This document shows, piece by piece, positions 3,925 through 30,004 of a stretch of 64,000 nt of DNA. The notes beneath the pieces were generated by a model. It worked only from the letters and a program-made list of their open reading frames with translations. It was not told where the DNA came from and did no database searches. Source of the DNA: Bacteroidota bacterium (lineage in GTDB: Bacteria; Bacteroidota; Bacteroidia; 2-12-FULL-35-15); the NCBI GenBank assembly GCA_005772895.1, contig SXIH01000038.1:42941-106940 (forward strand), given 5' to 3'. Each line of letters opens with the position of its first letter. The first letter of the stretch is position 1. The translations under genes and the position numbers were made by a program.

Positions 3925-3965
3925 ACCTACGAATTACGAATTTTTGCGAATTACGAACCTGCCTG

Positions 3966-3999
3966 CCGCAGGCAAGTCTGTGTTTTTTTATAATTCGAC
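3966..3999 (-). terminator. Hairpin (cttgcctgcggcaggcag on the minus strand) followed by a T-rich tract; putative terminator of the TPR gene
   Basis: GC-rich inverted repeat in an AT-rich intergenic region immediately 3' of the 4003..5823 gene. It is flanked by TTCGTAATTCG repeat copies. Confidence 0.3.
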
Positions 4000-4002
4000 T
4001 TT

Positions 4003-5823
4003 TTAATTAATACTATCCCCTCTTAATCTTCTGAAACGCTTTCTTGCTTCTACCACATATAAGCTATCAGGATATTTTTCCAATAATTGTTGATAGAGTT
4101 CCTTTGCTTTCTCAATATTTTTAAATTGATTCTCGTTTATGTCGGCTAGCTTAAACATTGCATCATCCCCTAAAATATCCTCTCCGTAATTTTTTAAAAT
4201 TTCTTCATAATAAATAACAGCTTGATTGTAATTTAATTTCTTCAAGGCTATTTGAGCTCTTTTGAAAATAATATCATCAGCTAGAGCATGATTGGGATAA
4301 GTATTGTTTAAAGAGTCGAGCAGAGAAATTGCAGTTTCATCCATATTTCTAAAAGAGAACAATTCGGCTAAGGCAAACAATTCTAACGGAGCTTCATTTG
4401 TATCAATGGCTAATGCATCACTAATTGTTAAGGATAGTTGTAATGCATCATTCGCAATTAATTTTGATGTAGCACCTTTCAACACGTCCAATTGTGTTTG
4501 TGCCCAACCAAAATCTCCTGTATAATAAGATATTCTTGCAACTCTGAATTTTGCTTCCTGTCCGATTGGCTCATGCTTAAACAATTTTTCAACTTGTGAA
4601 TAACGTAATGATGCTTCCCAGATATCGCCAGTCATTAATAATACATCAGCCAATTCCAATTTACATTCAGCTTGAGTAGTTAATGCCAACTGTGGCATAT
4701 TAATCGCTTCTTCTAAAAGTACTTTTGCTTCTTCAGTTTTATCCAAATAAAAAGCCTGAAGATGTGCAAGATTTTTTAAGAGTGGAACTGTGCCTGGAGA
4801 TTTTCCTAATTCAGTAATTGTAGCAGTGTAATTTTTTTCTAATTCAGTCAAATCAAACGGAGTGTAATTCCCTTTTGAAACTACTTTTTGATAATACACA
4901 TTTAATAATTCGATACGGGCATTGGTGTAATAATAAACATCCGGACCTTTTGCAATTATATAGTTGTAGGCTTTAATAGCAACATCATAAGCTTCGTTTT
5001 GTGCAAATAACTGAGCCAAGCCCATCACACGATTCCCTTCTTCTTTTTTTCTTTTATCTAAAGCTTTAGATTGAACAAAAGCGCCTTCCCAATCTTTCTG
5101 CTGAATTTGCATCCAAATTAATAGTTCTGATAAAATTGTTTTGTCGGGATTTTTAGAAATACGTTTTAATAATTCAGTCTTTAATAATTCATTTTGTTTT
5201 TGATCTGCCTCATTTCCAAAACTGGTTTGCAAAGCATTTTGTACACTTTGAATATAGGAGTCTTGTGTTTCTAAAACATCCAGATATTCATTGATCATTG
5301 CAGTTTTTTCTCCTAGTGTATTATAAACATCTGCTAATTCAAAACTGAAAGGATAATTGTTTTGAGAAATTCTTCTGCCTTTTAAATAAGTAGCAACAGC
5401 AAAGTTGTGTTGGCGAAGTGCAATAAAAGCATTGGCAACAGCAAATACTTGCTCGTCATATTTTATGGCTTTTACAGCCGACTCCCAGGTTGACTTTGCT
5501 TTTTCAACATCATCGGCTCTGAAATAAACATTTCCTAAATCAACAATATAGTTTGGTGCATCCGGATTTTGTTTGACTTGTTTTTTTACAATTTTTTCTG
5601 CCTTCTTAAAATCTTTGGTTTCTAAAAGACAATTTAGATAAGGAAGATAAAAAACCTGCGGTGATTTTTTGTTGTAAAGTTTTTCGTAATAATCCAATGC
5701 TTTATCAAATTCTTTGTTCTGATAAAATTGCAAAGCGAGTTGCTCATCTGTTCCGGGTTGGGCAAATGTGTGAATCTGTATAAATACAAATACGAAAAAT
5801 AATATGTGTTTAAGGTTTTTCAA
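4003..5823 (-). CDS. Tetratricopeptide (TPR) repeat protein, secreted/periplasmic
   Basis: 606 aa with an N-terminal signal peptide (MKNLKHILFFVFVFIQIHTFAQ) and many 34-aa TPR-like units (AL.YY.KL....A...Y). Confidence 0.6.
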   Translation of the reverse strand: MKNLKHILFFVFVFIQIHTFAQPGTDEQLALQFYQNKEFDKALDYYEKLYNKKSPQVFYLPYLNCLLETKDFKKAEKIVKKQVKQNPDAPNYIVDLGNVYFRADDVEKAKSTWESAVKAIKYDEQVFAVANAFIALRQHNFAVATYLKGRRISQNNYPFSFELADVYNTLGEKTAMINEYLDVLETQDSYIQSVQNALQTSFGNEADQKQNELLKTELLKRISKNPDKTILSELLIWMQIQQKDWEGAFVQSKALDKRKKEEGNRVMGLAQLFAQNEAYDVAIKAYNYIIAKGPDVYYYTNARIELLNVYYQKVVSKGNYTPFDLTELEKNYTATITELGKSPGTVPLLKNLAHLQAFYLDKTEEAKVLLEEAINMPQLALTTQAECKLELADVLLMTGDIWEASLRYSQVEKLFKHEPIGQEAKFRVARISYYTGDFGWAQTQLDVLKGATSKLIANDALQLSLTISDALAIDTNEAPLELFALAELFSFRNMDETAISLLDSLNNTYPNHALADDIIFKRAQIALKKLNYNQAVIYYEEILKNYGEDILGDDAMFKLADINENQFKNIEKAKELYQQLLEKYPDSLYVVEARKRFRRLRGDSIN

Positions 5824-5851
5824 TCTAAAATCTAACGTCTAAAATCCAATA

Positions 5852-6157
5852 TCATTGTTTGTAACCGATTATTTCAAGAACAACCGCTTTCGCCTCAATA
5901 TCTGTTCCGTTCTGTAAAGTTACTAAACTTCCTTCTCTTAAATGCTCTCCAAATCCAACCGGGGCATAAAGTACTGCATTCAAAACAGCCGTTTCACCTT
6001 GTTCTATTGGCTTTTTGTAGAGTTCAATCTGGCATTCGGTAGAGTAGCTTTTGGCTCCTTTTACATAGGCTTGGGGACGATAAATACCCATTAATTCGTA
6101 TTTGCTCAGATTTTCAACCAGCAATTTAACTATGAGGTATTTTTTGTGGTAAATCAT
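5852..6157 (-). CDS. Hypothetical small protein (101 aa)
   Basis: An ORF with good coding look and conserved-looking Gly/Glu-rich blocks. I recognise no family. Confidence 0.3.
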   Translation of the reverse strand: MIYHKKYLIVKLLVENLSKYELMGIYRPQAYVKGAKSYSTECQIELYKKPIEQGETAVLNAVLYAPVGFGEHLREGSLVTLQNGTDIEAKAVVLEIIGYKQ

Positions 6158-6248
6158 TATAGAAGCAAGATGTTAGAATTAAGATCCAAGAAGCAGGATT
6201 GTTTAGAATAGATACTTTATCTTGTCTCTTGATTCTAACATCTTGCTT

Positions 6249-7592
6249 CTATAAATGCTTTAGCATTGCCTTCTCCACTTCTTCGCTGTCCCACTTTTTA
6301 TCGATATCAGGCATAGACATAATTTTTTGCATGATGACTTCCTGCCTTTGTCCTTCTTTTAATGCTGTGGAATATCGGATGTGCGGACTATATGTCACCA
6401 TTGAATAAAGTGGAATCCATTTGTCGGGATGTTTGCTGCTGAAGTTGGCTTCAATTTTCTTTTGTAGTAAAAATTTCGGGTCGGCTGTTTTGTCACGCAT
6501 CTCAATAAAGTTGGCGATTGCTAAATCGGCAATTGCATCACCATCGGGTTTGCGTAATGTTTCGTATTCAGGAAATATTTTTGTCCAATCTTCTTTGTGT
6601 TTATCAATTAATTGATTTAACACAACACAATCTTCAAAACCGCAATTCATTCCTTGTCCGAAGAACGGAACGATAGCATGAGCGGCATCTCCTATGAGTC
6701 CCACTTTGTTGTCGAATGTCCAAGGGAAACATTTTACGGTTACCAATGATGAAACAGGATTGTTCATATAATCGTCTAGCAATGTCGGCATCAATGGAAC
6801 AGCATCCGGAAATTCTTCTTCAAAAAATTTCTTCACTTGTTCTTTTGTTTTGATGGCTGCAAAGGATTTTTCTCCTTCGAATGGAAAAAATAAGGTGCAG
6901 GTAAAATTGCCATCCAGGTTCGGCAAAGCTATCATCATAAAACTTCCGCGTGGCCAGATGTGCAATGCATTTTTTTCTAATAAAAATTCTCCATTTGGTC
7001 CGGGTGGAATAATTAATTCTTTGTACCCTGCCGAAATATAATGTTGATTGTATTCGAAACGGTCGCTGGTTAATTGCATGTTTAAACGTGATGCAGCAAA
7101 TGCTCCGTCAGAGCCAAACAATAAATCACTTTTAGAAGAACTTGTTTTTTTAGTTTCATCATTTTCAAAATGTGCTTCTAAACTTTTTCTATCAATTGTT
7201 GTACAGCGTTCGTTGAAATGAATTTTTACATTTGGCTGTTGCTCTGCTAAATCCATCAAACGCATATTTATTTCTCCCCGTGAAACAGAATAAATGGCTT
7301 GATTGTCTTTTCCATAAGGTTGATAAGCTGTTGAGCCGTCTTTATGATGTATTGCTCTTCCGTACATTGGAATTGCAATTTTTTTAATTTCATCGGCAAT
7401 ACCAACCCCTTCTAATCCTTTCCAACCTCTGTCGCTCAATGCAAGATTGATAGATTTTCCAGCTGAAATATTTGCAGTCCGCATATCAGGTCTGCGTTCA
7501 AACATATTTATTTTATAGCCACGCTTTGCTAAATAAATGGATAGCAATGATCCAACTAATCCCGCTCCGATAATATTTACACTTTTACTCAT
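6249..7592 (-). CDS. kmo: Kynurenine 3-monooxygenase (FAD-dependent)
   Basis: 447 aa with an N-terminal GAGLVGS FAD motif and blocks LHIWPRGSFMMIALPN..FTCTLFFPFE and GDAAHAIVPFFGQGMNCGFEDC, near-identical to eukaryotic and bacterial KMO. Confidence 0.9.
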   Translation of the reverse strand: MSKSVNIIGAGLVGSLLSIYLAKRGYKINMFERRPDMRTANISAGKSINLALSDRGWKGLEGVGIADEIKKIAIPMYGRAIHHKDGSTAYQPYGKDNQAIYSVSRGEINMRLMDLAEQQPNVKIHFNERCTTIDRKSLEAHFENDETKKTSSSKSDLLFGSDGAFAASRLNMQLTSDRFEYNQHYISAGYKELIIPPGPNGEFLLEKNALHIWPRGSFMMIALPNLDGNFTCTLFFPFEGEKSFAAIKTKEQVKKFFEEEFPDAVPLMPTLLDDYMNNPVSSLVTVKCFPWTFDNKVGLIGDAAHAIVPFFGQGMNCGFEDCVVLNQLIDKHKEDWTKIFPEYETLRKPDGDAIADLAIANFIEMRDKTADPKFLLQKKIEANFSSKHPDKWIPLYSMVTYSPHIRYSTALKEGQRQEVIMQKIMSMPDIDKKWDSEEVEKAMLKHL

Positions 7593-7647
7593 ATATCTTT
7601 TTTATTTCAAATAAATACTTTTGTTTCAGATATCACAATGACAAAAA

Positions 7648-8262
7648 TCACTTCTTCATATATATGTCATTCAAACCCTGTTTCTCTTTTATTTTTGCAA
7701 TGCCTTGTGCCATTCTTTTTTCTCTTGTTGCATCTTGTTTTGCTCCGTTAATCCATTGCACATAGTCTTTTCTTCTGGAGTAACTCATCTCTTCAAAATT
7801 GTGAAGGATTTTATTTTTTTCTAAAAGTTTTTTAAAATCAGGTGGGATGACAACTGTTTTGTCTTTCGCTTCAGTAATTTTCAAACCCTTTTCATTATTG
7901 ATAACTGCTTCTGTAATATACTCGATCAATAATTTTTCATCAATTTGTTTTACGTCTGTATATTTTATGTGACGATTATGCAAATTGCCTTCATTCATTT
8001 GCAATACTTTTTTCTTGTCCTTTAACAATGCGCCTTGCCAAAAAGTAAAAGTGCAGTGTTTTTTAAAATACCAGAATCCGCAAACCATACCATCTTTGTA
8101 GTAATTCGGACCCCATTTCCAATCTTCAATAATTGCAGGCTCTGCCTTGAAAATAATAGCACGCAATTTTTTGCAAATAGCTTGAGCAAATGGTTCAGCA
8201 CTTGCAATGCCTTCATCAATCAATTGCTTGGCATCAGGATTATGTTTTGGTTTTTTTGCCAT
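7648..8262 (-). CDS. DUF1801 / YdeI-OmpD-associated family protein
   Basis: 204 aa with an N-terminal DUF1801-like region and a C-terminal YdeI/OmpD-associated domain (bacteriocin-protection type). Confidence 0.4.
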   Translation of the reverse strand: MAKKPKHNPDAKQLIDEGIASAEPFAQAICKKLRAIIFKAEPAIIEDWKWGPNYYKDGMVCGFWYFKKHCTFTFWQGALLKDKKKVLQMNEGNLHNRHIKYTDVKQIDEKLLIEYITEAVINNEKGLKITEAKDKTVVIPPDFKKLLEKNKILHNFEEMSYSRRKDYVQWINGAKQDATREKRMAQGIAKIKEKQGLNDIYMKK

Positions 8263-8270
8263 TTCTTTCC

Positions 8271-8756
8271 TTATCGACCTTTTGATTTTTGACTTTTTTC
8301 TCTTTTAACTTTTTTTATTGGTAACCCTTTTTCAAAATAATCTTTTTCTATTCTAAGCACACTTGCAACGGCACGTTTTTCTCTTGTTTCTTTTCTTTTC
8401 GATTCGTTGATGTACTTTACATAATTTCTTTTGTGTGAAGGAGAATAAGCTTCGAACATTTTTTCTGCTTCCGGACTCGCTTCAAAAGCTTCTTTTAATT
8501 CTTCAGGAACTTTTAATTCTGCAAAATCTTCTTCTAAAATAATTTCAATTGTATCACCTGCTCCTTTTCTGATTGCTTTTCTGATTTGATTTTTTATTGG
8601 CATACAATGTTCTCCAGTTCCCATCGGCATAAGCGATGTGTCATCAAATGGAAATCTATCAATTGTTCCTTTTACTCTTACGTGTCCTGCTCTTCCAAAA
8701 ACTTTTCTAACATCAATGGGTGTTATAACAATTACCCATGAACCCAGTTTCTGCAT
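8271..8756 (-). CDS. DUF1905 / YdeI-OmpD-associated family protein (start trimmed to the internal Met)
   Basis: The track ORF runs to 8840, but its first 28 codons are encoded by an intergenic TCGCAGAT tandem repeat. DUF1905 proteins start at MQKLGSWVIV, so the likely start is ATG 8756. It is a paralog-like neighbour of 7648..8262. Confidence 0.4.
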   Translation of the reverse strand: MQKLGSWVIVITPIDVRKVFGRAGHVRVKGTIDRFPFDDTSLMPMGTGEHCMPIKNQIRKAIRKGAGDTIEIILEEDFAELKVPEELKEAFEASPEAEKMFEAYSPSHKRNYVKYINESKRKETREKRAVASVLRIEKDYFEKGLPIKKVKREKSQKSKGR

Positions 8757-8829
8757 TTGCACTTTGAATTTTTGTTTCGCTATTTTGCTCGCAGATTTCA
8801 CGGATTTTCGCAGATTTTTTTTAAAAAAT

Positions 8830-10098
8830 TTATAAAGCACTCTTCAGTATCTCTCCGAATCTATATACATCTTCAAAAGAATTATACAATGGAACGGGTG
8901 CACAGCGAATCACATTTGGTTCCCGCCAGTCAGAAATAATTCCCGCTTCCGTTAATTTGTTGAACAATTCTTTTCCTCTTCCGTGAGCAACAATTGAAAG
9001 TTGACATCCTCTTTGTTTTTTATCTCTTGGAGTAATAATTTCTAATTTTTTATCCAAGGATTTATTGATTTCATCAATAATAAATTCTAAATAACCCGTT
9101 AGTTTTTCTGCCTTAGCAACCAAAGCATCCATACCTACTTCGTTAAAAATATCTACTGAAGCTTTGTGAGCGGCCATGGATAAAACGGGAGCATTGCTCA
9201 TTTGCCAAGCTTCTGCAGTTGGCATTGGTACAAATCCTTTTTCCATTTTAAAACGTGTGTTCTTATCGTGTCCCCACCAACCTGCAAAACGAATAATTTC
9301 CGGTTTGTTCAAATGACGTTCGTGAATATAAACTCCTGCAACTCCACCCGGACCAGAATTTAAATATTTATAACTACACCAACATGCGAAGTCTACATTC
9401 CAATTGTGTAATTCTAATTTTAAATTTCCTGCAGCATGTGCCAAATCAAAACCAACCAATGCTCCGATTTTATGTCCGGCCTCCGTAATGCCCTTCATGT
9501 CGAACACTTGTCCGTTATAATAATTCACTCCACCAATCATAATGGTTGCAATCGAATCTTTGTTTTTTTCAATAGCAGCTAAAATATCTTCGTGACGGAT
9601 GCATATTTCTCCTTCACGTGGAGCAACTTCTATAATAGCATCATCAGGATTTAATCCATGAAATTTTACTTGTGATTCCAATGCATATTGATCGGATGGA
9701 AAAGCTTTTGCTTCACACAAAATTTTGTAACGAGTTTTGGTGGGGCGATAAAAACTCACTAATAACATGTGTAAGTTCACTGTCAGTTGATTCATTACAA
9801 CAACCTCTTCGGGTTTTGCACCAACAATTTTTGCAACAGGTTCAGCAAATTGTTCGTGATAGGGCATCCAGGGTTTACGCGAATGAAAATGACCTTCCAC
9901 ACCAAAAGTTGCCCAATCTTCCAATTCGTTCAAAACATAATCTTGTGTTGCTTTCGGTTGTAATCCCAATGAATTTCCCGTGAAATAAATAGTTTCGCGT
10001 CCATGCATCATTGGGAAATAAAATTTCTCACGATAACTTTTTAAAGGATCTGCTGCATCCTGTTGTTTTGCGTATTCAATGGTGTTTTCGTATTTCAT
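8830..10098 (-). CDS. kynU: Kynureninase (PLP-dependent)
   Basis: 422 aa with blocks FTGNSLGLQPK, GFDLAHAAGN, DFACWCSYKYLNSGPGG, RGCQLS and IRCAPVPLYNSFEDVYRF that match kynureninase throughout. Confidence 0.9.
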   Translation of the reverse strand: MKYENTIEYAKQQDAADPLKSYREKFYFPMMHGRETIYFTGNSLGLQPKATQDYVLNELEDWATFGVEGHFHSRKPWMPYHEQFAEPVAKIVGAKPEEVVVMNQLTVNLHMLLVSFYRPTKTRYKILCEAKAFPSDQYALESQVKFHGLNPDDAIIEVAPREGEICIRHEDILAAIEKNKDSIATIMIGGVNYYNGQVFDMKGITEAGHKIGALVGFDLAHAAGNLKLELHNWNVDFACWCSYKYLNSGPGGVAGVYIHERHLNKPEIIRFAGWWGHDKNTRFKMEKGFVPMPTAEAWQMSNAPVLSMAAHKASVDIFNEVGMDALVAKAEKLTGYLEFIIDEINKSLDKKLEIITPRDKKQRGCQLSIVAHGRGKELFNKLTEAGIISDWREPNVIRCAPVPLYNSFEDVYRFGEILKSAL

Positions 10099-10117
10099 AG
10101 AGCCTTGTCGGTTTTTG

Positions 10118-10134
10118 CTCGCAGAGACGCAGAG
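10118..10134. repeat. Left arm of a perfect 17-bp inverted repeat (CTCGCAGAGACGCAGAG) flanking the GxxExxY gene
   Basis: Its exact reverse complement CTCTGCGTCTCTGCGAG lies at 10603..10619. It is a member of the TCGCAGA repeat family. Confidence 0.8.
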
Positions 10135-10197
10135 TTCGCTGAGCTGTGTGTGTTAGTTGTTGGTGTTATTTACCGTGTGTTTTTGAGACGCAGTAGT

Positions 10198-10575
10198 TTA
10201 GTAATTGTTTACTATTCTTACTATCCCGTCTTTTACAAGGTTTACATTAAAATTTACTAATAATCCTACTTTTTTGTCCGTTAATTTTAAATAAGTCAAT
10301 AATTGTTTGTGGTGAACAGGTGCTAGTGCTTCAACTGATTTTATTTCTACAATAACTTTGTCTTCAACTATAATATCTGCTCTAAATCCAATATCCATTT
10401 TGTTGTCATCATAAAACACTTCGATACCTTCTTGTCTCTTAAAACTTAAGTTTCTTTTTTTTAATTCATAACAGACTACTTCTTCATATATACTTTCCAA
10501 CAATCCTGGACCTAGCCTCGAATGGACTTTTATAAAAATGTCAATAAGTGCCCCTGTAATATCATTTTCCTTCAT
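10198..10575 (-). CDS. GxxExxY family protein (PD-(D/E)XK nuclease-like)
   Basis: 125 aa carrying GLLESIYEEVVCYELKKRNL, the hallmark GxxExxY block, with the DxxV(E)xK-like core downstream. Confidence 0.7.
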   Translation of the reverse strand: MKENDITGALIDIFIKVHSRLGPGLLESIYEEVVCYELKKRNLSFKRQEGIEVFYDDNKMDIGFRADIIVEDKVIVEIKSVEALAPVHHKQLLTYLKLTDKKVGLLVNFNVNLVKDGIVRIVNNY

Positions 10576-10602
10576 AAATATTTTTTAATATGCCTCTGCG
10601 TG

Positions 10603-10619
10603 CTCTGCGTCTCTGCGAG
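10603..10619. repeat. Right arm of the 17-bp inverted repeat flanking the GxxExxY gene
   Basis: Exact reverse complement of 10118..10134. Confidence 0.8.
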
Positions 10620-10654
10620 AAATTTTTTCGCGGAGGATATTGCTTCCAAAGATA

Positions 10655-10662
10655 TATATTTG
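10655..10662 (+). promoter_or_regulatory. Putative Bacteroidota sigma-A -7 element (TATATTTG) for hemL
   Basis: It matches TAnnTTTG and sits about 20 nt upstream of the hemL ATG at 10682. Confidence 0.3.
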
Positions 10663-10681
10663 CATCCTAATATTTTCAATT

Positions 10682-11974
10682 ATGAAGAGAGAAAAATCAG
10701 AAGCTTTATTTGAGAAAGCGAAAAAATATTTTCCCGGTGGTGTAAACAGTCCTGTCCGTGCTTTTCGTTCGGTTGGTGGCACTCCATTGTTTATTCAAAA
10801 AGGCAAAGGCTCACATATTTGGGATGCTGATGGAAATGAGTTTATTGACTATTGCGGTTCCTGGGGACCATTAATTTTAGGACATGCAAATGCTAAGGTG
10901 GTAGACGCCATTAAAAAAACAGTTGAGAATGGCAGCTCGTTTGGTGCACCAACAGCATTGGAAAATGATTTGGCGGAGTTGATTTTGAATAACAATAAAT
11001 ACATTCAAAAAATTCGTTTTGTAAGTTCAGGTACGGAAGCGGTGATGAGTGCTATTCGTTTGGCAAGAGGTTATACAAAAAGAAACAAGATTTTAAAATT
11101 CGAAGGGTGTTATCACGGACATAGTGATTCACTTTTGGTGAAAGCAGGTTCGGGATTGGTGACATTTGGTAATACATCATCAGCAGGAGTTCCTGAGAGT
11201 TTTGTGAATGAAACAATTGTAGTTTCATTGAATAACGAAGCCGCAGTTAAGCAAGCTTTCGCAGAATTTAAAGATCAGATTGCCTGTGTGATTATTGAAC
11301 CCATTCCAGCTAACAATGGATTGTTGTTGCAGCGCAAAGAATATTTGCAATTTTTACGCGACATCTGTACAGAAAACAAAACACTTTTAATTTTTGATGA
11401 AGTAATCAATGGATTCAGAATTGGTTTTGAAGGTGCAGCTGGTTATTATAAAATTCAACCAGACATTATTACTTACGGAAAAATTATTGGTGGTGGTTTG
11501 CCTGTTGGAATGTATGGTTCTTCTGCTGAGATTATGAGTAATATTTCTCCTGAAGGAAATGTGTACCAAGCGGGAACATTGAGCGGAAATCCTGTTGCTA
11601 TGGCAGCCGGGATTGCACAATTAACTGAATGTTTAAAACCTGGATTCTATGAGGAGTTGGAGAGCAAGACGAAGTTTTTGGTAGATTCCATCTTTTCAAA
11701 TTTCAAATTTCAAATTTCAAATTTTAAGATTTACAGTGTTGGTTCCGTTTTTTGGATTGCTTTTACAGATAAAGATGTTGTTCGTTCTGCAGAAGAAATT
11801 GATGCTGACTCAATGAAACATTTCAGAATTCTTCATAAAGAATTATTGGAGCGTGGAATTTATCTTGGTCCGTCAGGTTATGAAGTTGGTTTTGTTTGTG
11901 AAGCACATACAGAAGAAGATTTAATGAAAACAGCAAAAGCTTTTCGTGAAGCTTTGGAAATTGCTATGAAATAG
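10682..11974 (+). CDS. hemL: Glutamate-1-semialdehyde 2,1-aminomutase
   Basis: The protein starts MKREKSEALFEKAKKYFPGGVNSPVRAF and aligns along its full length with HemL. The track ORF starts 14 codons upstream at 10640, but ATG 10682 matches the family N-terminus. Confidence 0.9.
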   Translation: MKREKSEALFEKAKKYFPGGVNSPVRAFRSVGGTPLFIQKGKGSHIWDADGNEFIDYCGSWGPLILGHANAKVVDAIKKTVENGSSFGAPTALENDLAELILNNNKYIQKIRFVSSGTEAVMSAIRLARGYTKRNKILKFEGCYHGHSDSLLVKAGSGLVTFGNTSSAGVPESFVNETIVVSLNNEAAVKQAFAEFKDQIACVIIEPIPANNGLLLQRKEYLQFLRDICTENKTLLIFDEVINGFRIGFEGAAGYYKIQPDIITYGKIIGGGLPVGMYGSSAEIMSNISPEGNVYQAGTLSGNPVAMAAGIAQLTECLKPGFYEELESKTKFLVDSIFSNFKFQISNFKIYSVGSVFWIAFTDKDVVRSAEEIDADSMKHFRILHKELLERGIYLGPSGYEVGFVCEAHTEEDLMKTAKAFREALEIAMK

Positions 11975-12000
11975 ATTAAATTTGTTGTAAATTATTCCTT

Positions 12001-12234
12001 ATGAATATCCAAGCACAAAAAATAGAGTTAGCAAAACAACTTTTAGATGTTAAGAGTGAAGTTGTTTTGAAACAAATCAAAGCATTTTTAAATGCTTACA
12101 AAACTGATTTGTGGGATGAGCTTTCTGATGAGCAGAAAGCCTCCATTCATCGCGCTAAAGTTCAGTTGGCAAACGGTGAAGGTGTTGCTCATAAAGAAGT
12201 AATGAAAAAGTATAAAAAATGGCGTACAAAATAA
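12001..12234 (+). CDS. Putative antitoxin (addiction-module component) of a type II TA pair
   Basis: 77 aa. It overlaps the downstream RelE/ParE toxin gene by 16 nt and has a small helical DLWDELSDEQKASI...KKW architecture typical of Bacteroidota addiction-module antitoxins. Confidence 0.5.
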   Translation: MNIQAQKIELAKQLLDVKSEVVLKQIKAFLNAYKTDLWDELSDEQKASIHRAKVQLANGEGVAHKEVMKKYKKWRTK

Positions 12235-12530
12235 TTTGGTCGCCAGAAGCCATTGATACTTTTGATGCAATAATTAAATATCTTTCTGAAAACTGGTCTG
12301 AACGAGAAGTATCTAATTTCTTAGATGACTCAGAGCACACTATATTTTTATTAGAGAAAAACCCATTTTTATTTCGTGGCTCAACCAAAGAGAGTGTTCA
12401 TGAGGCATTGATAACCAAGCACAATTTATTGTTATATCAAATTGTCGAAAATTCTAAAAGAGTTGAATTAATTAGTTTTTGGGACACACGCCAAAACCCT
12501 AAAAGAAAATTTTTGAAAAAGAAAAGATAA
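12219..12530 (+). CDS. Type II toxin-antitoxin system RelE/ParE-family toxin
   Basis: 103 aa starting MAYKIIWSPEA..D...I..YL, the RelE/ParE N-terminal signature. It is translationally coupled to the upstream small gene. Confidence 0.65.
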   Translation: MAYKIIWSPEAIDTFDAIIKYLSENWSEREVSNFLDDSEHTIFLLEKNPFLFRGSTKESVHEALITKHNLLLYQIVENSKRVELISFWDTRQNPKRKFLKKKR

Positions 12531-12554
12531 TTAAATTCTCTAAAGAAGTGTTTT

Positions 12555-13040: not shown

Positions 13041-13112
13041 TATATTTTTCTGCGTAAATCTGCGTAATCTGCGAGCCATTTCCTATATTTATTCCATCAA
13101 AACTACTTCACA

Positions 13113-13982: not shown

Positions 13983-13992
13983 TCTAAATAAT

Positions 13993-15268: not shown

Positions 15269-15288
15269 TTTTTAAAATATGAAACCTT

Positions 15289-15981: not shown

Positions 15982-16032
15982 TTTTATTGTTTATTGTTAA
16001 TAATTTCAGTGCCATAAAAGCTCAATTCTAAT

Positions 16033-18985: not shown

Positions 18986-19005
18986 AGCATAATTTTTCTT
19001 TTAAT

Positions 19006-19036: not shown

Positions 19037-19083
19037 TAGCTCGACTTTTGAAATAAATTAATTAATAACTAAAAACAATAAAC

Positions 19084-20082: not shown

Positions 20083-20101
20083 TATATAATACTTTTTTAT
20101 G

Positions 20102-20140
20102 AAAGCCACTCCATTTATTTGGTGTGGCTTTCTTATTTTA
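20102..20140 (+). terminator. Rho-independent terminator hairpin (aaagccac...gtggcttt + T-rich)
   Basis: An 8-bp perfect stem directly after the stop at 20082. Confidence 0.5.
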
Positions 20141-20227
20141 ATTAATCGATGAGATATTGTTTTTTGTGCTACTATTTATTACCTTTATCGCTCAATTTTA
20201 AAAACTCAAATTTTAAACCCTGAAAAG

Positions 20228-21319: not shown

Positions 21320-21341
21320 TATAGATAAATAAATTTTAATG

Positions 21342-21376
21342 AAGCCTGGGCAATAGTTGTCCGGGCTTTATTTTTT
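21342..21376 (+). terminator. Rho-independent terminator hairpin (aagcctggg...cccgggctt + tattttttattt)
   Basis: Stem containing one G-U pair, followed by a U-tract after the stop at 21319. Confidence 0.5.
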
Positions 21377-21504
21377 ATTTACTAGGGATAAAAAATATTG
21401 CCCAAGACGATAAATGTCTGGACTTTCTATTGTTTTTTATATTTAAATAGTTTAATTTTAATACTTAATTATCTCCTGCGAGTGCAGGACTAAAACCTGA
21501 AAAA

Positions 21505-23406: not shown

Positions 23407-23429
23407 AAATTTCAGTATTAAAAATAAAA

Positions 23430-23468
23430 AACGGGCTCAACAAATTTGTTGAGCCCGTTTTTTTTATA
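23430..23468. terminator. Bidirectional rho-independent terminator (acgggctcaacaaatttgttgagcccgt + T8)
   Basis: Perfect 10-bp stem flanked by an A-tract and a T-tract, between the convergent genes ending at 23406 (+) and 23479 (-). Confidence 0.65.
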
Positions 23469-23478
23469 AAACAATAAA

Positions 23479-24231
23479 TTAAAATTTTGTTTTTAAATCT
23501 TTCATGAATTTTGTAGCATAAACAAAATCACAAACTTCTTGATTGTCTGTTTTTAAAATCTCCTGTTTACTTCCTTGCCACCAATTATCGCCTTTGTAAA
23601 TAAACATAATGTTATCACCAATTTCGATAACAGAATTCATATCATGAGTAATGACCACAGTGGTGATAACGTACTCATCGGTAATTTCTTTTATTAAATT
23701 ATCTATTACAATGGACGTTTTAGGATCGAGTCCGGAGTTTGGTTCATCACAAAACAAATACTTAGGTTGCACAGCTATAGCTCTGGCAATAGCAACCCGT
23801 TTTTTCATTCCCCCGCTTAATTCAGATGGATATAAATTGTTTGCATTTGGAAGGTTTACTCTTTGCAAACAAAAATTTGCTCTGTCGCGTTTTTCAGTTT
23901 CAGTCATATCAGTAAACATTGATAATGGGAAAACTACATTTTCTTCAACATTTTTCGAGTCAAACAATGCACCTCCTTGAAACAGCATTCCAATTTCTTT
24001 TCTGATTTCTTTTTTGCCTTTAAAATCCAGTTCGTAAAAATTTCTTCCGTTGAATAGTACTTCACCGCTATCCACTTCATTTAAACCTACCATGCACTTT
24101 AATAAGGTAGTTTTTCCAGAACCGCTTTCACCGATAATCATATTTGTTTTTCCCTGCTCAAAAGTGAAAGAGATTTCGTTCAGGACTTTTCGCTCCGAAA
24201 AAGATTTCGATATGTTATTAATTTGTATCAA
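23479..24231 (-). CDS. ABC transporter ATP-binding protein (MlaF/Ttg2A-like)
   Basis: 250 aa with Walker A GESGSGKTT, the LSGGM signature and a Walker B motif. Confidence 0.7.
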   Translation of the reverse strand: MIQINNISKSFSERKVLNEISFTFEQGKTNMIIGESGSGKTTLLKCMVGLNEVDSGEVLFNGRNFYELDFKGKKEIRKEIGMLFQGGALFDSKNVEENVVFPLSMFTDMTETEKRDRANFCLQRVNLPNANNLYPSELSGGMKKRVAIARAIAVQPKYLFCDEPNSGLDPKTSIVIDNLIKEITDEYVITTVVITHDMNSVIEIGDNIMFIYKGDNWWQGSKQEILKTDNQEVCDFVYATKFMKDLKTKF

Positions 24232-24968
24232 ACGAGTAAAACCTGAGTTAAAATTAAATCGAAAGTAAGAATCAAAACGCTTGTATAAACTACGCCTTTT
24301 GTACTTGATCGCCCTACTTCGAGTGCACCCCCTTTGGTATAGTATCCGTGATACGCAGGAACAGACGCAATCAAAAATGCGAAAACAGCCGTTTTAATCA
24401 AAGCATAAATAACATTGAATGGCCTGAATTCATAAGTAATACCTAAAATATAATCGAAATCCGTAACCACTCCGGCCATTAAACCAAAAACGTATCCTCC
24501 AAGTATTCCAAGGAACATAGAGAAGATGATTAAAATTGGATTAAATAATACGGATGCTATAATTTTAGGAAGAATTAAATAACCTGCCGAATTGATTCCC
24601 ATTATTTCCAGAGCATCAATTTGTTCGGTAACTCTCATTGTTCCTATTTCGGAGGCGATGCTGGAACCAATTTTCCCTGCTAAAATTAAACTTACAATTG
24701 CTGGAGAGAATTCCAAGATCATTGAATCACGAACGGCAACACCAACAGCGTATTGAGGGATAAGCGGACTTTCAAAATTGAATGCAGTTTGTATGGTAAT
24801 TACTGCACCCATAAACACCGAAATAATGGCTACAATTCCTAAAGAGCCAATACCAAGGGAATTCATTTCTTCAAAAATTCGTTGACGATAGATGGCACGT
24901 TTTTCGGGTTTCCCAAAAGCACGTTTCATTAGAATATAATATTGACCGAAGTGAAAAAATATATTCAT
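24228..24968 (-). CDS. ABC transporter permease (MlaE/Ttg2B-like)
   Basis: 246 aa. The N-terminus (FGQYYILMKRAFGKPEKRAIYRQRIFEEM...GIGSLGIV) is typical of the MlaE family. It overlaps the ATPase gene by 4 nt. Confidence 0.7.
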   Translation of the reverse strand: MNIFFHFGQYYILMKRAFGKPEKRAIYRQRIFEEMNSLGIGSLGIVAIISVFMGAVITIQTAFNFESPLIPQYAVGVAVRDSMILEFSPAIVSLILAGKIGSSIASEIGTMRVTEQIDALEIMGINSAGYLILPKIIASVLFNPILIIFSMFLGILGGYVFGLMAGVVTDFDYILGITYEFRPFNVIYALIKTAVFAFLIASVPAYHGYYTKGGALEVGRSSTKGVVYTSVLILTFDLILTQVLLV

Positions 24969-25075
24969 TTAGTTATTGAGCCAATTTTTATTTGAATTTA
25001 GGGTTAAAAATAAGAATAATTGACCACAAATGATGTGTTTTGTTTTTGCTATCTTTGTATATCAATCTCTGCAAC

Positions 25076-25225
25076 ATGTACAATCATTTTCAAAAAGTAA
25101 TAAAACTTATCGTATTACTTGTTTTTATTACTTTATTTTCCAGCTGCTTTGCAACACGCAAAAAAAATAGGTGTGGCGATTGCCCTAAATGGAAAATGGA
25201 AATCATTGACCTTTTTACAAAGTAA
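25076..25225 (+). CDS. Possible small lipoprotein (49 aa)
   Basis: Encodes MYNHFQKVIKLIVLLVFITLFSSC followed by ...CGDCPKW. It is the internal start of track ORF 25040..25225. Weak call. Confidence 0.2.
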   Translation: MYNHFQKVIKLIVLLVFITLFSSCFATRKKNRCGDCPKWKMEIIDLFTK

Positions 25226-25306
25226 AATCATCTCTGAATTGTCCAAATCCCATAAAATACCATATTTTAGGTATCGGTTTAATCACATTTTGGCTTAAAA
25301 AATACG

Positions 25307-25314
25307 TACTTTTG
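25307..25314 (+). promoter_or_regulatory. Putative -7 element (TACTTTTG) for feoAB
   Basis: It matches TAnnTTTG and sits about 10 nt upstream of the feoA ATG at 25324. Confidence 0.3.
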
Positions 25315-25323
25315 GTATCAACA

Positions 25324-25575
25324 ATGTCAAACACAAAAGCTTTGAAAAATTTAGCACAATTAAAAATAGGACAAAGTGCCATAATTGATTCGTTTACCGA
25401 TAAACAGATGGCTTTGAAACTATTGGAAATGGGTTGCACTCCTGGCGAGATTGTGAAACTCGACCGAATAGCTCCGCTTGGTGATCCGATTGCTATTTCT
25501 GTTGCCGGATATTTGTTAAGTTTGCGTATAGCAGAGGCTTCCACCGTACTTGTTTCTCCTATTCCTGCTGTCTAA
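25324..25575 (+). CDS. feoA: Ferrous iron transport protein A
   Basis: 83 aa FeoA SH3-like protein (L..L..G..A.I..... GCTPGEIV). The track start 25312 is TTG inside the putative -7 box, so ATG 25324 is preferred. Confidence 0.7.
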   Translation: MSNTKALKNLAQLKIGQSAIIDSFTDKQMALKLLEMGCTPGEIVKLDRIAPLGDPIAISVAGYLLSLRIAEASTVLVSPIPAV

Positions 25576-25586
25576 CCCATTTTGTT

Positions 25587-27731
25587 TTGGATTCAAACGC
25601 ATCTTTCGTTCACTTTTCTGATAAAACAACTGTAAAAGTTGCTCTTGTTGGAAACCCCAACAGTGGCAAGTCCACTTTATTTAATGCACTTACAGGCTTA
25701 AATCAAAAAACGGGAAATTTTCCTGGAGTTACTGTCGATAAAAAATCGGGTTTTGCCAAATTAAATTCAACAATTACTGCCGAATTTATTGATTTACCTG
25801 GAACTTATAGTTTATACCCCAAATCGCTTGATGAACGGGTTGCTTTTGAAGTGCTTTGTAATAGTGAAAATGCCCACCATCCCGATGTAACAGTTATTGT
25901 TGCGGATGCCAGTAATCTAAAACGAAATTTGTTTTTAGTTTCTCAAATCATTGATTTAAAAATTCCTGTTATTCTTGCACTCAATATGATGGATATGGTG
26001 GAGAAAGAAGGCGATGCGATTGATGTTATTCGGTTATCCGAAAAATTGGGAGTAAAAGTTGTTGGAATTAGTGCAAGAAACAAAGAGGGGGTTGAAGAAC
26101 TCAAACAAGCTTTGTTACAACCATTGCCGGTACCGCAGTATGACTTTATCGACATTCATAAAATTGCTCCCGAAGCAATTGATAAAATAAAATCTGTATT
26201 AAAAGTAAAAAGCGATTTTTCTGCTTTTCAAATTGCAAACAATCTTTCAGATATTAATTATTTGCATAATAAAGAAATGCAAATAAAAATTACCGATGCT
26301 CTTAATACTTTAATCATTGATAAAAATAAACTACAATCATTAGAAAGTGTTGAACGGTACAAAACAATTAACCGCATTGTTGAAGAATGCATTACTCGTA
26401 AATCAGCAATAAAAACACAATCGTTCACTCAAAAATTAGATAGTGTTTTAACACATAGAATTTGGGGTTATGCTATTTTTTTAGTGGTGCTTTTTCTGAT
26501 ATTTCAAGCTATTTTTTTTCTTGCAGCTTTTCCAATGGAATGGATTGAAAGCTTATTTATTTCTATTTCTGAAATAACTGCAAATGTTTTACCGCAAGGA
26601 GAACTTAGTAATTTATTGGTAAACGGAATAATAGCAGGATTGAGTGGAGTAGTAGTATTTGTCCCGCAAATAGCATTACTTTTTGCTTTTATTGCCATTT
26701 TAGAGGATACGGGCTATATGGCACGTGTGAGTTTTATTATGGATAAACTTATGCGAAGATTCGGATTAAACGGTCGCTCTGTTATTCCATTGATAAGCGG
26801 AGTTGCTTGTGCTGTGCCTGCTATTATGAGTGCACGTACCATCAGTAGCTGGAAAGAACGCATCATTACTATTTTTGTAACACCATTAATGAGTTGTTCT
26901 GCACGACTTCCTGTTTATACACTTTTGATTTCATTAGTTGTTCCACAAGATAAAAATTCGGGATTTTTTAATTATCAAGGGTTGATATTGATGGCTTTGT
27001 ATTTGATTGGATTTATTGCTGCAATCGGATCTGCATGGGTGATGAAATGGATTTTAAAAGCAAAAGAAAAAAGTTATTTTATTATGGAGCTGCCTGTGTA
27101 CCGTACCCCACAGTGGCGTACGGTCGGACTAACAATTTACGATAAAGTAAAATTATTTTTGTTTGACGCGGGAAAAATTATTGTTGCAATTTCTATCATC
27201 CTTTGGTTTTTATCTTCACATGCACCTGGAAATAAATTTGATGAGATTGAAAAAAAATATCAAGACTATAGTTTCAGGGGAGATTTAAATCAAGATGAGA
27301 TAGCAGCAAAAATTTCATCCGAAAAATTAGAGGTATCCTATGCAGGAATGCTTGGAAAATCTATAGAACCCGCCATCAAACCTTTAGGATTTGACTGGAA
27401 AATTGGAATTTCTTTGGTTACATCATTTGCTGCACGTGAAGTATTTGTAGGAACAATGGCAACTATTTACAGCGCAGGAAATACCGACAATACACAAAGC
27501 ATAAGAGAGAAAATGCAAGCAGAAAAAGATCCGGAAACAGGAAAACCAAAATATTCAATTGCTGTAGGATTTTCATTAATGATTTTTTATGCCTTCGCAA
27601 TGCAATGTATGAGTACACTTGCGGTAGTATACAGAGAAACAAAAAGCTGGAAATGGCCGACTGTGCAATTCTTCTTTATGGGAGCACTAGCTTATGTTTC
27701 TAGTTTTATTGTTTATCAATTGTTGAAATAA
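25587..27731 (+). CDS. feoB: Ferrous iron transport protein B
   Basis: 714 aa with an N-terminal G-domain (VALVGNPNSGKSTLFNALTG) and polytopic membrane domains. The start is TTG as read from the display, so the exact start is uncertain. Confidence 0.9.
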   Translation: MDSNASFVHFSDKTTVKVALVGNPNSGKSTLFNALTGLNQKTGNFPGVTVDKKSGFAKLNSTITAEFIDLPGTYSLYPKSLDERVAFEVLCNSENAHHPDVTVIVADASNLKRNLFLVSQIIDLKIPVILALNMMDMVEKEGDAIDVIRLSEKLGVKVVGISARNKEGVEELKQALLQPLPVPQYDFIDIHKIAPEAIDKIKSVLKVKSDFSAFQIANNLSDINYLHNKEMQIKITDALNTLIIDKNKLQSLESVERYKTINRIVEECITRKSAIKTQSFTQKLDSVLTHRIWGYAIFLVVLFLIFQAIFFLAAFPMEWIESLFISISEITANVLPQGELSNLLVNGIIAGLSGVVVFVPQIALLFAFIAILEDTGYMARVSFIMDKLMRRFGLNGRSVIPLISGVACAVPAIMSARTISSWKERIITIFVTPLMSCSARLPVYTLLISLVVPQDKNSGFFNYQGLILMALYLIGFIAAIGSAWVMKWILKAKEKSYFIMELPVYRTPQWRTVGLTIYDKVKLFLFDAGKIIVAISIILWFLSSHAPGNKFDEIEKKYQDYSFRGDLNQDEIAAKISSEKLEVSYAGMLGKSIEPAIKPLGFDWKIGISLVTSFAAREVFVGTMATIYSAGNTDNTQSIREKMQAEKDPETGKPKYSIAVGFSLMIFYAFAMQCMSTLAVVYRETKSWKWPTVQFFFMGALAYVSSFIVYQLLK

Positions 27732-27735
27732 ACAC

Positions 27736-27808
27736 TACGAATTACGAAATTTTTCGAATTACGAATCTATACAATGATTATTTTTGAGTAATAATTCGTA
27801 ATTCGTAG
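27736..27808. repeat. TTCGTAATTCG-family repeat cluster with a perfect 14-bp inverted repeat (ctacgaattacgaa ... ttcgtaattcgtag)
   Basis: Two direct copies (27736..27749 and 27755..27766) plus an inverted copy (27795..27808), lying between feoB and the SprT-like gene. Confidence 0.7.
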
Positions 27809-27812
27809 AAAA

Positions 27813-28472
27813 GTGAATCAACTCGAACGTAACCAATCCATTCTTAATAAATATATTCCGGAAAAGGCTGTTCCCGTTATTTCCGAATGGATTTACAAAT
27901 TCGATTTCAAATTAAAAATAAAAAAGAGTCGTAGTTCTAAGTATGGTGATTATAGGCCACCTGTAAAAGGAGAAAATCATTTGATTACAATTAATTACGA
28001 TATGAACAAGTATGCTTTTTTAATTACACTTGTTCATGAAATTGCTCATTTATCTACTTACAACAAGCATAAGGATAGTGTAAAACCGCATGGAGAAGAA
28101 TGGAAATTACATTATAAATTATTAATGCAGCAATTTTTAATTCCAGATATTTTTCCTGTAGATGTCATCACAGCATTAAGAAAATACATGAATAATCCGG
28201 CTGCATCCAGTTGTTCGGATACAAATTTATTGAGGCTCCTTAAAAATTACGATAATAAACAAGATATTGTGCTTTTAGAAGATATTCCGGTAGGTTCAAC
28301 CTTTTCTTATAATAACAACAGACACTTTATAAAAGGCCCTCAATCGCGAAAACGCATCAAATGTACAGATGTTAATACCAAAGCGACCTATCTATTCAAC
28401 CCCATAACAGAAGTATTGGTAATTCATACACCTTTGTTTGCCGAAAATAAGGCAAAAATCACCAACAATTAA
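27813..28472 (+). CDS. SprT-like zinc-metallopeptidase domain protein
   Basis: 219 aa with an HEIAH motif in an SprT-like context. GTG start. Confidence 0.5.
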   Translation: MNQLERNQSILNKYIPEKAVPVISEWIYKFDFKLKIKKSRSSKYGDYRPPVKGENHLITINYDMNKYAFLITLVHEIAHLSTYNKHKDSVKPHGEEWKLHYKLLMQQFLIPDIFPVDVITALRKYMNNPAASSCSDTNLLRLLKNYDNKQDIVLLEDIPVGSTFSYNNNRHFIKGPQSRKRIKCTDVNTKATYLFNPITEVLVIHTPLFAENKAKITNN

Positions 28473-28505
28473 TCAACAAATAAGCACAAGGTATTGGGTT
28501 TTTGT

Positions 28506-28513
28506 TAAATTTG
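28506..28513 (+). promoter_or_regulatory. Putative -7 element (TAAATTTG) for the aminotransferase gene
   Basis: It matches TAnnTTTG and sits 47 nt upstream of the ATG at 28560. Confidence 0.3.
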
Positions 28514-28559
28514 TTTATCACAATAAATACCAATTAATAATGCTTAAAAATTTTACATT

Positions 28560-29852
28560 ATGAGTGCAAATACAATGGAAAAAAACATCGATTTGAAAGT
28601 ATCAAAACTGGCTCAGAATATTATCGGGTCGGAAATTATAAAGTTGGCTGCTGAGGTGAATGAAAAGATTAAACAAGGCGAGAAAGTTTATAATTTTACT
28701 ATCGGTGATTTTAACCCAAAGATTTTTCCTATTCCTGCTGAATTAAAAACAGCAATCATTGCAGCTTATGAAGATGATCAAACAAATTATCCGGCAGCGG
28801 ATGGAATGTTGGAATTGCGTCAATCGGTTGCAAAACTTTTAAAAGAACGCGGTAATTTAGATTATAAAACGGATGAGATAGTGATTGCTGGAGGAGCTCG
28901 TCCTGTAATTTATGCAATTTTTAAAGCATTGGTGGATGAAGGTGATACTGTTGTTTTTCCGGTTCCATCATGGAACAATAATCACTACACGTATTTAAAC
29001 AATGCAAAACCGGTGTTGATTGAAACAACTCCCGAAAATAAATTTATGCCTACTGCAGCTGATTTAAAACCTTATATCAGTTCTGCTAATTTAATTGCAT
29101 TGTGTTCTCCTTTGAATCCAACGGGAACAACTTTCCGTAAAAAAGATCTGGAAGAAATTTGTGATATGATTTTGGAGGAAAATGAAAAACGTACACTCGC
29201 AAATAAAAAACATTTGTATTTAATGTACGATCAAATTTATTGGGAATTAACTTTTGGAGATACTAAACATTATAATCCTGTATCACTTCGTCCGGAAATG
29301 AAAAATTATACGGTGTTTGTTGATGGAATTTCTAAATCTTTGTCGGCAACCGGAGTGAGAGTAGGTTGGAGTATGGGTCCGAAAAAAATCATTGAAAAAA
29401 TGAAATCCATTTTAACGCATGTTGGAGCTTGGGCTCCGAAAGCTGAACAAATGGCAACAGCGACATATTTGAATGATTTAAATACTTACGAAAGTTTTTT
29501 AACTAATACCAAAACAAAAATTAACGATCGTTTAGTTGGAATTTACAAAGGATTTCAAAGTTTAAAAGCAGAAGGATTTAAAATAGATGCCATTGCTCCG
29601 GAAGCAGCTATTTATTTAACCGTGCAGTTTGCGTTGCATGGAAAAACAAAAGCGGATGGAACAGTTCTGAAAACAACACAGGATGTTACCAAATATATTT
29701 TGGATGAAGCAAAAGTTGCATTGGTGCCTTTTTATGCATTTGGTGCTTCTGATGATTCAAACTGGTATCGTTTGTCGGTTGGAACTTGTAAAGTAGAAGA
29801 GATTGAAGCGGTGATTGAAAGTTTGAGAAGTGCATTAAAGAAACTTAAGTAG
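28560..29852 (+). CDS. Pyridoxal-phosphate-dependent aminotransferase, class I/II
   Basis: 430 aa with aspartate/aromatic aminotransferase-like blocks and the PLP-lysine region (SKS...GVRVGW). Confidence 0.6.
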   Translation: MSANTMEKNIDLKVSKLAQNIIGSEIIKLAAEVNEKIKQGEKVYNFTIGDFNPKIFPIPAELKTAIIAAYEDDQTNYPAADGMLELRQSVAKLLKERGNLDYKTDEIVIAGGARPVIYAIFKALVDEGDTVVFPVPSWNNNHYTYLNNAKPVLIETTPENKFMPTAADLKPYISSANLIALCSPLNPTGTTFRKKDLEEICDMILEENEKRTLANKKHLYLMYDQIYWELTFGDTKHYNPVSLRPEMKNYTVFVDGISKSLSATGVRVGWSMGPKKIIEKMKSILTHVGAWAPKAEQMATATYLNDLNTYESFLTNTKTKINDRLVGIYKGFQSLKAEGFKIDAIAPEAAIYLTVQFALHGKTKADGTVLKTTQDVTKYILDEAKVALVPFYAFGASDDSNWYRLSVGTCKVEEIEAVIESLRSALKKLK

Positions 29853-29854
29853 CC

Positions 29855-30004
29855 CCAACGAATTACTAAAAAAAAGTACGAAAAATACGAAATACAAATC
29901 CAAGAGCTGTATTATCTAATCGACAATTTGTTATTCGTATATTTCGTAAAAATTCGTAATTCGATGGAGTCGATTGTAGTGTGTTATTAATTCGTAATTC
30001 GTAG
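29855..30004. repeat. TTCGTAATTCG-family repeat cluster (degenerate and intact copies)
   Basis: Intact copies attcgtaattcga at 29952..29964 and ttcgtaattcgtag at 29991..30004, plus degenerate acgaattac / tacgaaa units at 29858..29900. Confidence 0.6.

Follow-up and report, generated by a model that had tools for sequence, protein, structure and literature searches.

The short motif that recurs between genes in this 64,000-nt stretch of a Bacteroidota genome (assembly GCA_005772895.1, contig SXIH01000038.1, positions 42,941 to 106,940; hereafter, the window) is probably a heptanucleotide tandem repeat of the class formed by short tandemly repeated repetitive (STRR) sequences and heptameric simple sequence repeats (SSRs), generated by a largely sequence-independent DNA process. 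Its 13-mer core, TACGAATTACGAA, consists of two head-to-tail units of the heptamer TACGAAT (ATTCGTA on the other strand). The family matches the heptamer-repeat class on every structural feature tested: a 7-nt head-to-tail unit, intergenic placement, the presence of several heptamer families, and inverted arrays that can form hairpins. It is one of many word families filling the intergenic spacers of this genome. Because the host belongs to the Bacteroidota and is not a filamentous cyanobacterium, we file the family under the broad heptamer class and not under STRR in the narrow sense.

Exact copies of TACGAATTACGAA lie at 3928-3940 (+), 27736-27748 (+), 27795-27807 (-) and 29991-30003 (-), one-mismatch copies at 3945-3957 (+) and 27753-27765 (+), and degenerate ones at 29857-29898 (+) and 29927-29965 (-). 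They occupy three spacers, here called sites A, B and C, at which every copy listed in the original prediction of a dispersed repeat family was found again. The four exact copies have the 14-mer CTACGAATTACGAA in common, which a literature search did not recover. Could an AT-rich word simply have clustered here by chance, without biological meaning? The loci found number just three and fall within a span of 26 kb, and single TACGAAW heptamers are barely enriched in the window (28 vs 17.6 expected). However, at up to two mismatches, the 64-kb window contains 14 matches to TACGAATTACGAA, as compared to 1.89 ± 1.39 expected, and none of 100 dinucleotide-preserving shuffles reached that number. 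Exact identities between sites run to 16 to 17 nt, and a related genome (L125; loci from other assemblies are given L numbers) holds an orthologous copy. Moreover, a scan of 596 Gb, with one genome per species, for two copies of CGAATTACGAA within 30 nt returned at least 120 TACGAAT-repeat loci against ~2 expected by chance (our own arithmetic, assuming 22 specified bases). Chance clustering, refuted by both the shuffle test and the cross-genome scan, can be given practically no credence. Sites A and B are also identical in two independent ENA assemblies (L001 and L202) and therefore do not represent assembly artefacts.

The seven-nucleotide period reaches beyond this family. We relied on a lag-recurrence analysis; an exact tandem search that needs more than two units misses the TACGAAT family, whose blocks comprise two. 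In the window, 5-mers recur at a lag of 7 nt 19.2 times per kb in intergenic DNA and 1.9 times per kb in coding DNA, with no other lag coming close. In the sampled relatives, the excess at this lag is weak (4.8 per kb), so that repeat abundance is lineage-specific. Listing all intergenic spacers revealed at least seven further word families.

The same heptamer is arrayed in distant phyla. The matches listed from the cross-genome scan comprise 54 loci from Cyanobacteria (Nostoc, Calothrix, Planktothrix, Dolichospermum and others), 30 from Bacteroidota (Chitinophaga, Saprospiraceae, Pontibacter, Flavobacterium and others), seven from Acidobacteriota, six from Chloroflexota, four each from Patescibacteria and Planctomycetota, two from Ignavibacteria and 13 from other or unclassified organisms. 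Within this listed set, to which all counts in this paragraph refer, the majority are pure (TACGAAT)4-12 arrays, often beside arrays of other heptamers, and an inverted partner lies no more than 160 nt away in 16 of 105 arrays. Where arrays could be placed relative to open reading frames (ORFs), 74 of 85 were intergenic, distributed over 22 convergent, seven divergent and 45 co-directional spacers. The arrays in co-directional spacers lack an orientation bias (25 vs 20), the only preference seen being that for convergent spacers. All ORF-internal arrays (11/11) are in the TACGAAT orientation, which is free of stop codons in every frame, while the ATTCGTA orientation has a TAA in every frame. 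Across 890 kb of DNA from these loci, there are 68 arrays of 56 other heptamers, compared with 28 arrays of all other periods between 4 and 12 taken together.

One of the listed loci illustrates how such arrays can enter genes. The defence locus of Dolichospermum sp. ST_sed8 (JAKOGY010000182.1; L108, 417-7842) contains TACGAAT arrays in frame: five arrays of 33 nt each, coding for NYELRITNYEL, in an Eco57I-like N6-methylase ORF, and one longer array in the helicase ORF next to it. The two ORFs share the C-terminal end IRNS*, encoded by ATTCGTAATTCGTAA, which is supplied by an inverted array. An alignment of 29 methylase homologues shows several indel hot spots at which some sequences have a heptamer-coded insert and others do not; the more distant homologues have none, and in some cases the heptamer-coded stretch itself contains a nested insert of 8 residues (VSEALPKG). 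The variability of these inserts indicates that arrays enter DNA as insertions, which are tolerable in frame.

How stable are such arrays at a given position? Site A separates the genes for a TPR protein and a DUF4286 protein, both on the - strand, site B lies between the co-directional genes for FeoB and an SprT-like protein, and site C between those for an aminotransferase (amt) and ManC, likewise co-directional. A metagenome scan with the aminotransferase yielded 80 loci, more than 12 of which retain all or part of the feoB-sprT-amt-manC order. The amt-manC spacer measures 156 nt in the window, 10-27 nt in L195, L127, L128/L134, L142 and L161, and ~56 nt in L126, and none of the latter spacers contains an ACGAAT word. 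L126, L127, L128, L134 and L195 preserve the gene order, at 83-85% amino-acid identity, without the element. L122-124 (91% amino-acid identity) carry an amt-manC element of ~220 nt with 38-nt inverted arms of ACGAAT words (z -7.4), L125 (85%) a compact hairpin whose stem is perfect over 27 bp (z -8.7), and L170 a degenerate version of the ACGAAT-word hairpin. The L125 hairpin ends in ATTCGTAATTCGTAG, 5 nt before the GTG start codon, and this copy is orthologous to the one at site C. In the feoB-sprT spacer, L122 and L123 harbour an element whose arms are near-identical to their amt-manC counterparts, around a different loop (z -8.6); L122 thus possesses two near-identical arm sets 2 kb apart, with loops of up to ~110 nt. 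No element was found in the feoB-sprT spacer of L126, L127, L170, L129 and L142. These comparisons show that close relatives have acquired, lost or rebuilt whole hairpins at the same gene junctions, which is not the behaviour of a conserved operator.

This turnover bears on the proposal, made in the original prediction from the constant spacing of the direct copies, of a dimeric DNA-binding site: a dimeric or tandem-binding transcription factor would occupy two 13-bp half-sites 17 bp apart and control the downstream genes. At sites A and B, the direct copies are indeed 17 nt apart (start to start), and the encompassing 30-nt modules are identical at 27 of 30 positions. In addition, an exact copy precedes the start codon by 3-5 nt at all three sites: TTCGTAATTCGTA ends 3, 5 and 5 nt before ATG 3924 (-), GTG 27813 and GTG 30009, respectively, and likewise in L125, although this pattern comprises only three loci. 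Yet the spacing belongs to a duplicated module of ~30 nt and changes to 16 nt in L125, and the sequence is absent from L126, L127, L128, L134, L195, L142 and L161 despite synteny. The downstream products (DUF4286, SprT-like and ManC) share no function, and the copies lie at or after the expected transcription start and not in the promoter. Neither the occurrence of 4- to 12-unit arrays in at least seven phyla nor many unrelated word families of the same architecture within the window would be expected of an operator, which we accordingly regard as a very unlikely explanation. The proximity to start codons is forced by geometry, since the empty spacers of relatives span merely 10-27 nt. Scans for sigma-70 promoters and terminators at the three sites returned nothing exceeding shuffle expectation. 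The -7 box of Bacteroidetes promoters reads TAnnTTTG; two matches to it, at 27779-27786 and 30002-30009, were taken as chance occurrences in AT-rich DNA, the second one overlapping the start of manC.

The inverted copies give rise to strong predicted hairpins in the sense RNA. At site B, the perfect 14-bp inverted repeat noted previously was confirmed, its arms lying at 27735-27748 and 27795-27808; the earlier coordinates of the left arm were off by one base, and 46 rather than 45 nt separate the arms. The site B hairpin (27735-27808) has a folding energy of -24.3 kcal/mol (z -4.75 vs shuffles) and that of site C (29855-29967) one of -30.8 kcal/mol (z -6.47), while the fold at site A is weak (z -2.6). 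Such stems prompted the idea of a terminator or attenuator, and intrinsic (Rho-independent) hairpins at gene 3' ends would fit two observations: strong predicted stems at sites B and C start 0-4 nt past the stop codons, and among the cross-phylum matches listed, arrays are more frequent in convergent (22) than in divergent (7) spacers. However, the stems are rich in A/U and not in GC, loops can reach ~110 nt (L122), and a U-tract is missing at sites B and C, where the tails after the stems read GAAAAGUG and GGAGUCGA. A T-run is equally missing after the weak fold at site A and after the hairpin of an unrelated word family at 6155-6251. A consensus terminator scan of the sense strand gave no match at either site, whereas the genome uses ordinary terminators with a GC stem and a T-run elsewhere (20083-20227, 21320-21400 and 23407-23478 in the window), and relatives lack any hairpin at the same junctions. 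So the strong stems stand, but their reading as canonical terminators does not, and we deem it decidedly improbable. An Rfam scan of the whole window at gathering thresholds returned no known RNA family.

The closest parallels to a heptamer repeat are found among previously described elements. Cyanobacterial STRR sequences are 7-bp repeats forming intergenic hairpins, for which roles in transcript stability or translational coupling have been proposed (PMC2670836). The TACGAAT family resembles them in unit length, intergenic location and the coexistence of several heptamer families in a genome, in having inverted arrays that form hairpins between co-transcribed genes (as does the STRR at hupS-hupL), and in that TACGAAT itself is arrayed in Nostoc, Calothrix, Planktothrix and Dolichospermum. 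It differs in its Bacteroidota host, in its two-unit blocks broken by spacers of 3-5 nt, and in the heptamer, which is not one of the classical STRR1-3 units. The latter are said to be CCCCAGT, TTGGTCA and CAACAGT, as reportedly described by Mazel et al. in 1990.

Similar in many respects are the TAACTGA repeats (MacGregor 2015) of Beggiatoaceae, Cyanobacteria and five Bacteroidetes, which are mostly intergenic, reside a few nucleotides upstream of start codons in the orientation that has stops in all frames, precede genes without a functional pattern, share their spacers with other heptamers, and are missing from the shorter spacers of close relatives (PMC4679880). Occurring as 2-6 direct copies, they parallel the present family in intergenic and start-proximal placement, stop-bearing orientation, functionally patternless downstream genes, patchy phyletic distribution, accompanying heptamers and the shorter, empty spacers of relatives. 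The likeness is one of analogy and not of identity, the unit here being TACGAAT. The DNA sampled here also contains far fewer copies, and these include inverted, hairpin-forming ones; among the 170 repeat sets of BOGUAY, a single one is indirect.

Mrazek et al. 2007, as far as that work is relayed in a later study (PMC4679880), identified seven nucleotides as the most frequent unit length of long SSRs (units of 5-11 nt) and suggested that these arise by polymerase slippage. Period 7 likewise dominates in the window and in the listed cross-phylum loci. Pure slippage, however, leaves unexplained the inverted copies, the shared 30-nt module and the in-frame Dolichospermum inserts of equal length.

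Finally, the proteobacterial REP, BIME and REPIN elements, built on repetitive extragenic palindromes and proposed to stabilise mRNAs and to act in attenuation (PMC3116915, PMC3733652), are also short intergenic hairpin repeats that sit at gene 3' ends and in co-directional spacers and vary between strains. Might the arrays, then, be non-autonomous elements akin to REPINs or miniature inverted-repeat transposable elements, with the ACGAAT-word arms as terminal inverted repeats for a dedicated transposase (RAYT- or IS200-like, or other) encoded elsewhere? Inverted arms around variable loops, presence/absence polymorphism among relatives, and the near-identical arms with different loops at two sites 2 kb apart in L122 would all be in line with this. 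All exact copies also end in ...CGTAG, GTAG being the REP tag (PMC3733652), and in other word families of the window, paired arms enclose entire small genes, one of them for a GxxExxY/PD-(D/E)XK_3 protein. On the other hand, a REP unit is an imperfect palindrome of 20-40 nt that bears a free 5' GTAG/CGTC tag and is mobilised by RAYT, while the unit here is a direct heptamer word without an internal palindrome, in which GTAG occurs only as the paired 3' end of an arm. No target-site duplication could be made out in the diverged flanks, and an architecture common to so many word families speaks for a process that does not depend on sequence. A mobile element of this kind, served by a transposase whose gene could lie anywhere else in the genome, is in our view unlikely, and we favour the heptamer-repeat reading.

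How could heptamer arrays arise and spread by a process that is largely indifferent to sequence? Replication slippage, template switching from one arm to the other and the insertion of ready-made arrays are candidates; slippage together with template switching would explain why arms stay complementary while diverging between genomes. The arrays probably behave as rapidly turned-over DNA that is for the most part selfish or neutral, and not as a conserved regulatory site. Once transcribed, they would furnish the message with a long, A/U-rich intercistronic hairpin, and the likeliest consequence would be post-transcriptional: the hairpin may form a barrier at the 3' end of the upstream message that delays its 3'-to-5' decay or its processing, or it may cover the initiation region of the next gene, to be opened when a ribosome translating the upstream gene unwinds the 5' arm, a form of translational coupling. 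Any specific function of the hairpins at the RNA level is a doubtful proposition at best.

Several observations weigh against the interpretation put forward here. The TACGAAT blocks consist of two exact units, while classical STRRs have three or more, and those exact arrays in the window that do have at least three units belong to other heptamers. The family was found at only three loci in ~82 kb, with no further TACGAAT copies in the 18 kb of flanking DNA read within 10 kb on either side of the window. No enzyme could be linked to the arrays, in ~82 kb of DNA read and with the window ORFs not systematically searched for a transposase, nor was a target-site duplication recognised between filled and empty spacers, whose flanks have diverged too far. 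Sense and antisense folding energies of eight hairpins showed no consistent asymmetry (four folded better in sense, four about equally well), and selection at the RNA level is therefore not demonstrated; the closeness of the hairpins to stop and start codons is likewise no evidence of function.

Heptamer repeats have been known for decades and are used for strain typing. The present data add that a Bacteroidota genome can be densely filled with word repeats and that one heptamer recurs across distant phyla. For annotators, this means that TACGAAT-type motifs should not be read as regulator sites or terminators. A more far-reaching idea, which we put forward as a long shot, is that heptamer-word hairpins form a cross-phylum class of tiny self-propagating elements that have been co-opted as intercistronic devices in Shine-Dalgarno-poor Bacteroidota. 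If the arrays do propagate themselves, copying would be sequence-independent, and insertion into genes without a frame shift would be possible, the Dolichospermum methylase being an example. If co-option is true, the hairpin would keep the downstream start hidden up to the arrival of the upstream ribosome, and stray frames would be closed by the ATTCGTA copy with its stop codons next to the start codon. The feoB-sprT and amt-manC junctions, with their natural 'empty' alleles, make the effect of a hairpin on the expression of its neighbours measurable.

The layout of the three sites is as follows. All copies are intergenic and lie between tandem (co-directional) genes, as had been claimed in part; none of the three loci falls between convergent genes, which had also been proposed. 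At each site, the start-proximal copy is in the ATTCGTA orientation and carries TAA/TAG stop codons. The site A module, TACGAATTACGAA-ttttt-GCGAATTACGAA (3928..3957, +), comprises two blocks of two heptamer units, 17 nt from start to start, and is the same in L202; its - strand reading, TTCGTAATTCGTA, stops 3 nt short of ATG 3924 of the DUF4286 gene. This ATG is the real gene start, as the Pfam match to DUF4286 covers the entire product of 99 residues. The module adjoins a GC-rich palindrome, CCTGCCTGCCGCAGGCAAG (3958..3978), a similar version of which, CCTGCCTGCCGGTAGGCAGG, occupies the loop of the L122 element at feoB-sprT. Just past the stop codon of the TPR gene (4003-5823) lies a degenerate inverted copy, TTATAATTCGAC (3988..3999, -; GUCGAAUUAUAA on the - strand), which pairs weakly with the module in the site A fold.

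At site B, the left module, CTACGAATTACGAA-attttt-CGAATTACGAAT (27735..27766, +), which may also be written TACGAATTACGAA-ATTTTT-CGAATTACGAA, begins 4 nt after the FeoB stop codon and provides the 5' arm of the hairpin. The right arm, TTCGTAATTCGTAG (27795..27808, -), is the perfect 14-bp complement of 27735-27748 and ends 4 nt before GTG 27813 of the SprT-like gene. At site C, a left arm of degenerate ACGAA words (AACGAATTACTAAAAAAAAGTACGAAAAATACGAAATACAAA; 29855..29899, +) directly follows the aminotransferase stop codon and is complemented by the right arm (TTTGTTATTCGTATATTTCGTAAAAATTCGTAATTCGATGG; 29926..29967, -), which, when reversed, represents a degenerate copy of the ~30-nt module of sites A and B. 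Outside of this hairpin resides a solitary exact copy, ATTCGTAATTCGTAG (29990..30004, -), 4 nt before GTG 30009. This GTG is the true start of manC, its leader GTGAAnAATAATTATTGTGTGATAATG (MKNNYCVIM...) being kept in every relative. As for the remaining gene content, the window encodes proteins with C-terminal domains of the type IX secretion system, and GldD is encoded just past its end, which identifies the host as a member of the Bacteroidota. Almost the same 30-nt module with the 17-nt offset of sites A and B, TACGAATTACGAATTTTTTCGAATTACGAAT, was seen at 1739-1768 of L007 (JAHJTG010000007.1), a metagenome-assembled genome labelled as Patescibacteria; this likeness could reflect shared origin, convergence or misbinning.

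Among the other word families of the window, an intergenic one of TCTAAAA words is seen at 5824, and another, of AGANNNN words with an inverted copy, is found between genes at 6158-6248. The latter forms a hairpin (6155-6251) with 35-nt arms, 91% complementary (z -8.6), that spans from the stop codon of a gene for an FAD-binding protein (6249-7592, -) to 2 nt before ATG 6157 of the next ORF. CTCTGCG/CGCAGAG words ('TCTGCGTAATCTGCGAG') occur in five or more places (8787, 10115, 10594, 13049 and 35575), the copy at 8787 falling inside an ORF (8271-8840), and probably correspond to the family that had been counted as the first dispersed one in the original prediction. Octamers of the GTGACTAG type lie at 31098 and, inverted, at 32100, TTCAGAT words at 63815, and TGTCTAC words at 63860 as well as in L202 (16043-16254).

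Two small ORFs reside between inverted arms of such words. The 125-aa GxxExxY/PD-(D/E)XK_3 gene (10198-10575, -) is bordered by CGCAGAG-word arms of 29 nt at 10115-10143 and 10594-10622; these are 86% complementary, and a 17-bp stem encloses the whole ORF (z -2.2). To judge from the predicted fold, this gene appears to occupy the loop of a hairpin made of word repeats (10095-10640). An ORF of 226 aa (31263-31943, -), without a match in Pfam or NCBIfam, is placed between inverted arrays of the GTGACTAG type (31098-31165 and ~32100-32151). An exact (TTTCAAA)4 array of 31 nt (11694-11724) sits inside an ORF (10640-11974, +); either the reading frame accommodates the array or the ORF was miscalled at this point.

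Two further repeats were observed. A dispersed intergenic sequence, GTCATCCTGAGCGGAGTCGAAGGAC / CTCGACTCCGCTCGAA, is present in several spacers of the same genome (L202 at 16230 and 17832; L205 at 14610 and 16180; 32040-32080 of the window) and is unrelated to the heptamer words. Lastly, an ORF of 2973 aa (38451-47372) contains 14 tandem repeats of 243 nt (81 aa) at 39969-43424, followed by a second series of ~267 nt at 43435-46111, and its product is probably a large repetitive surface protein.

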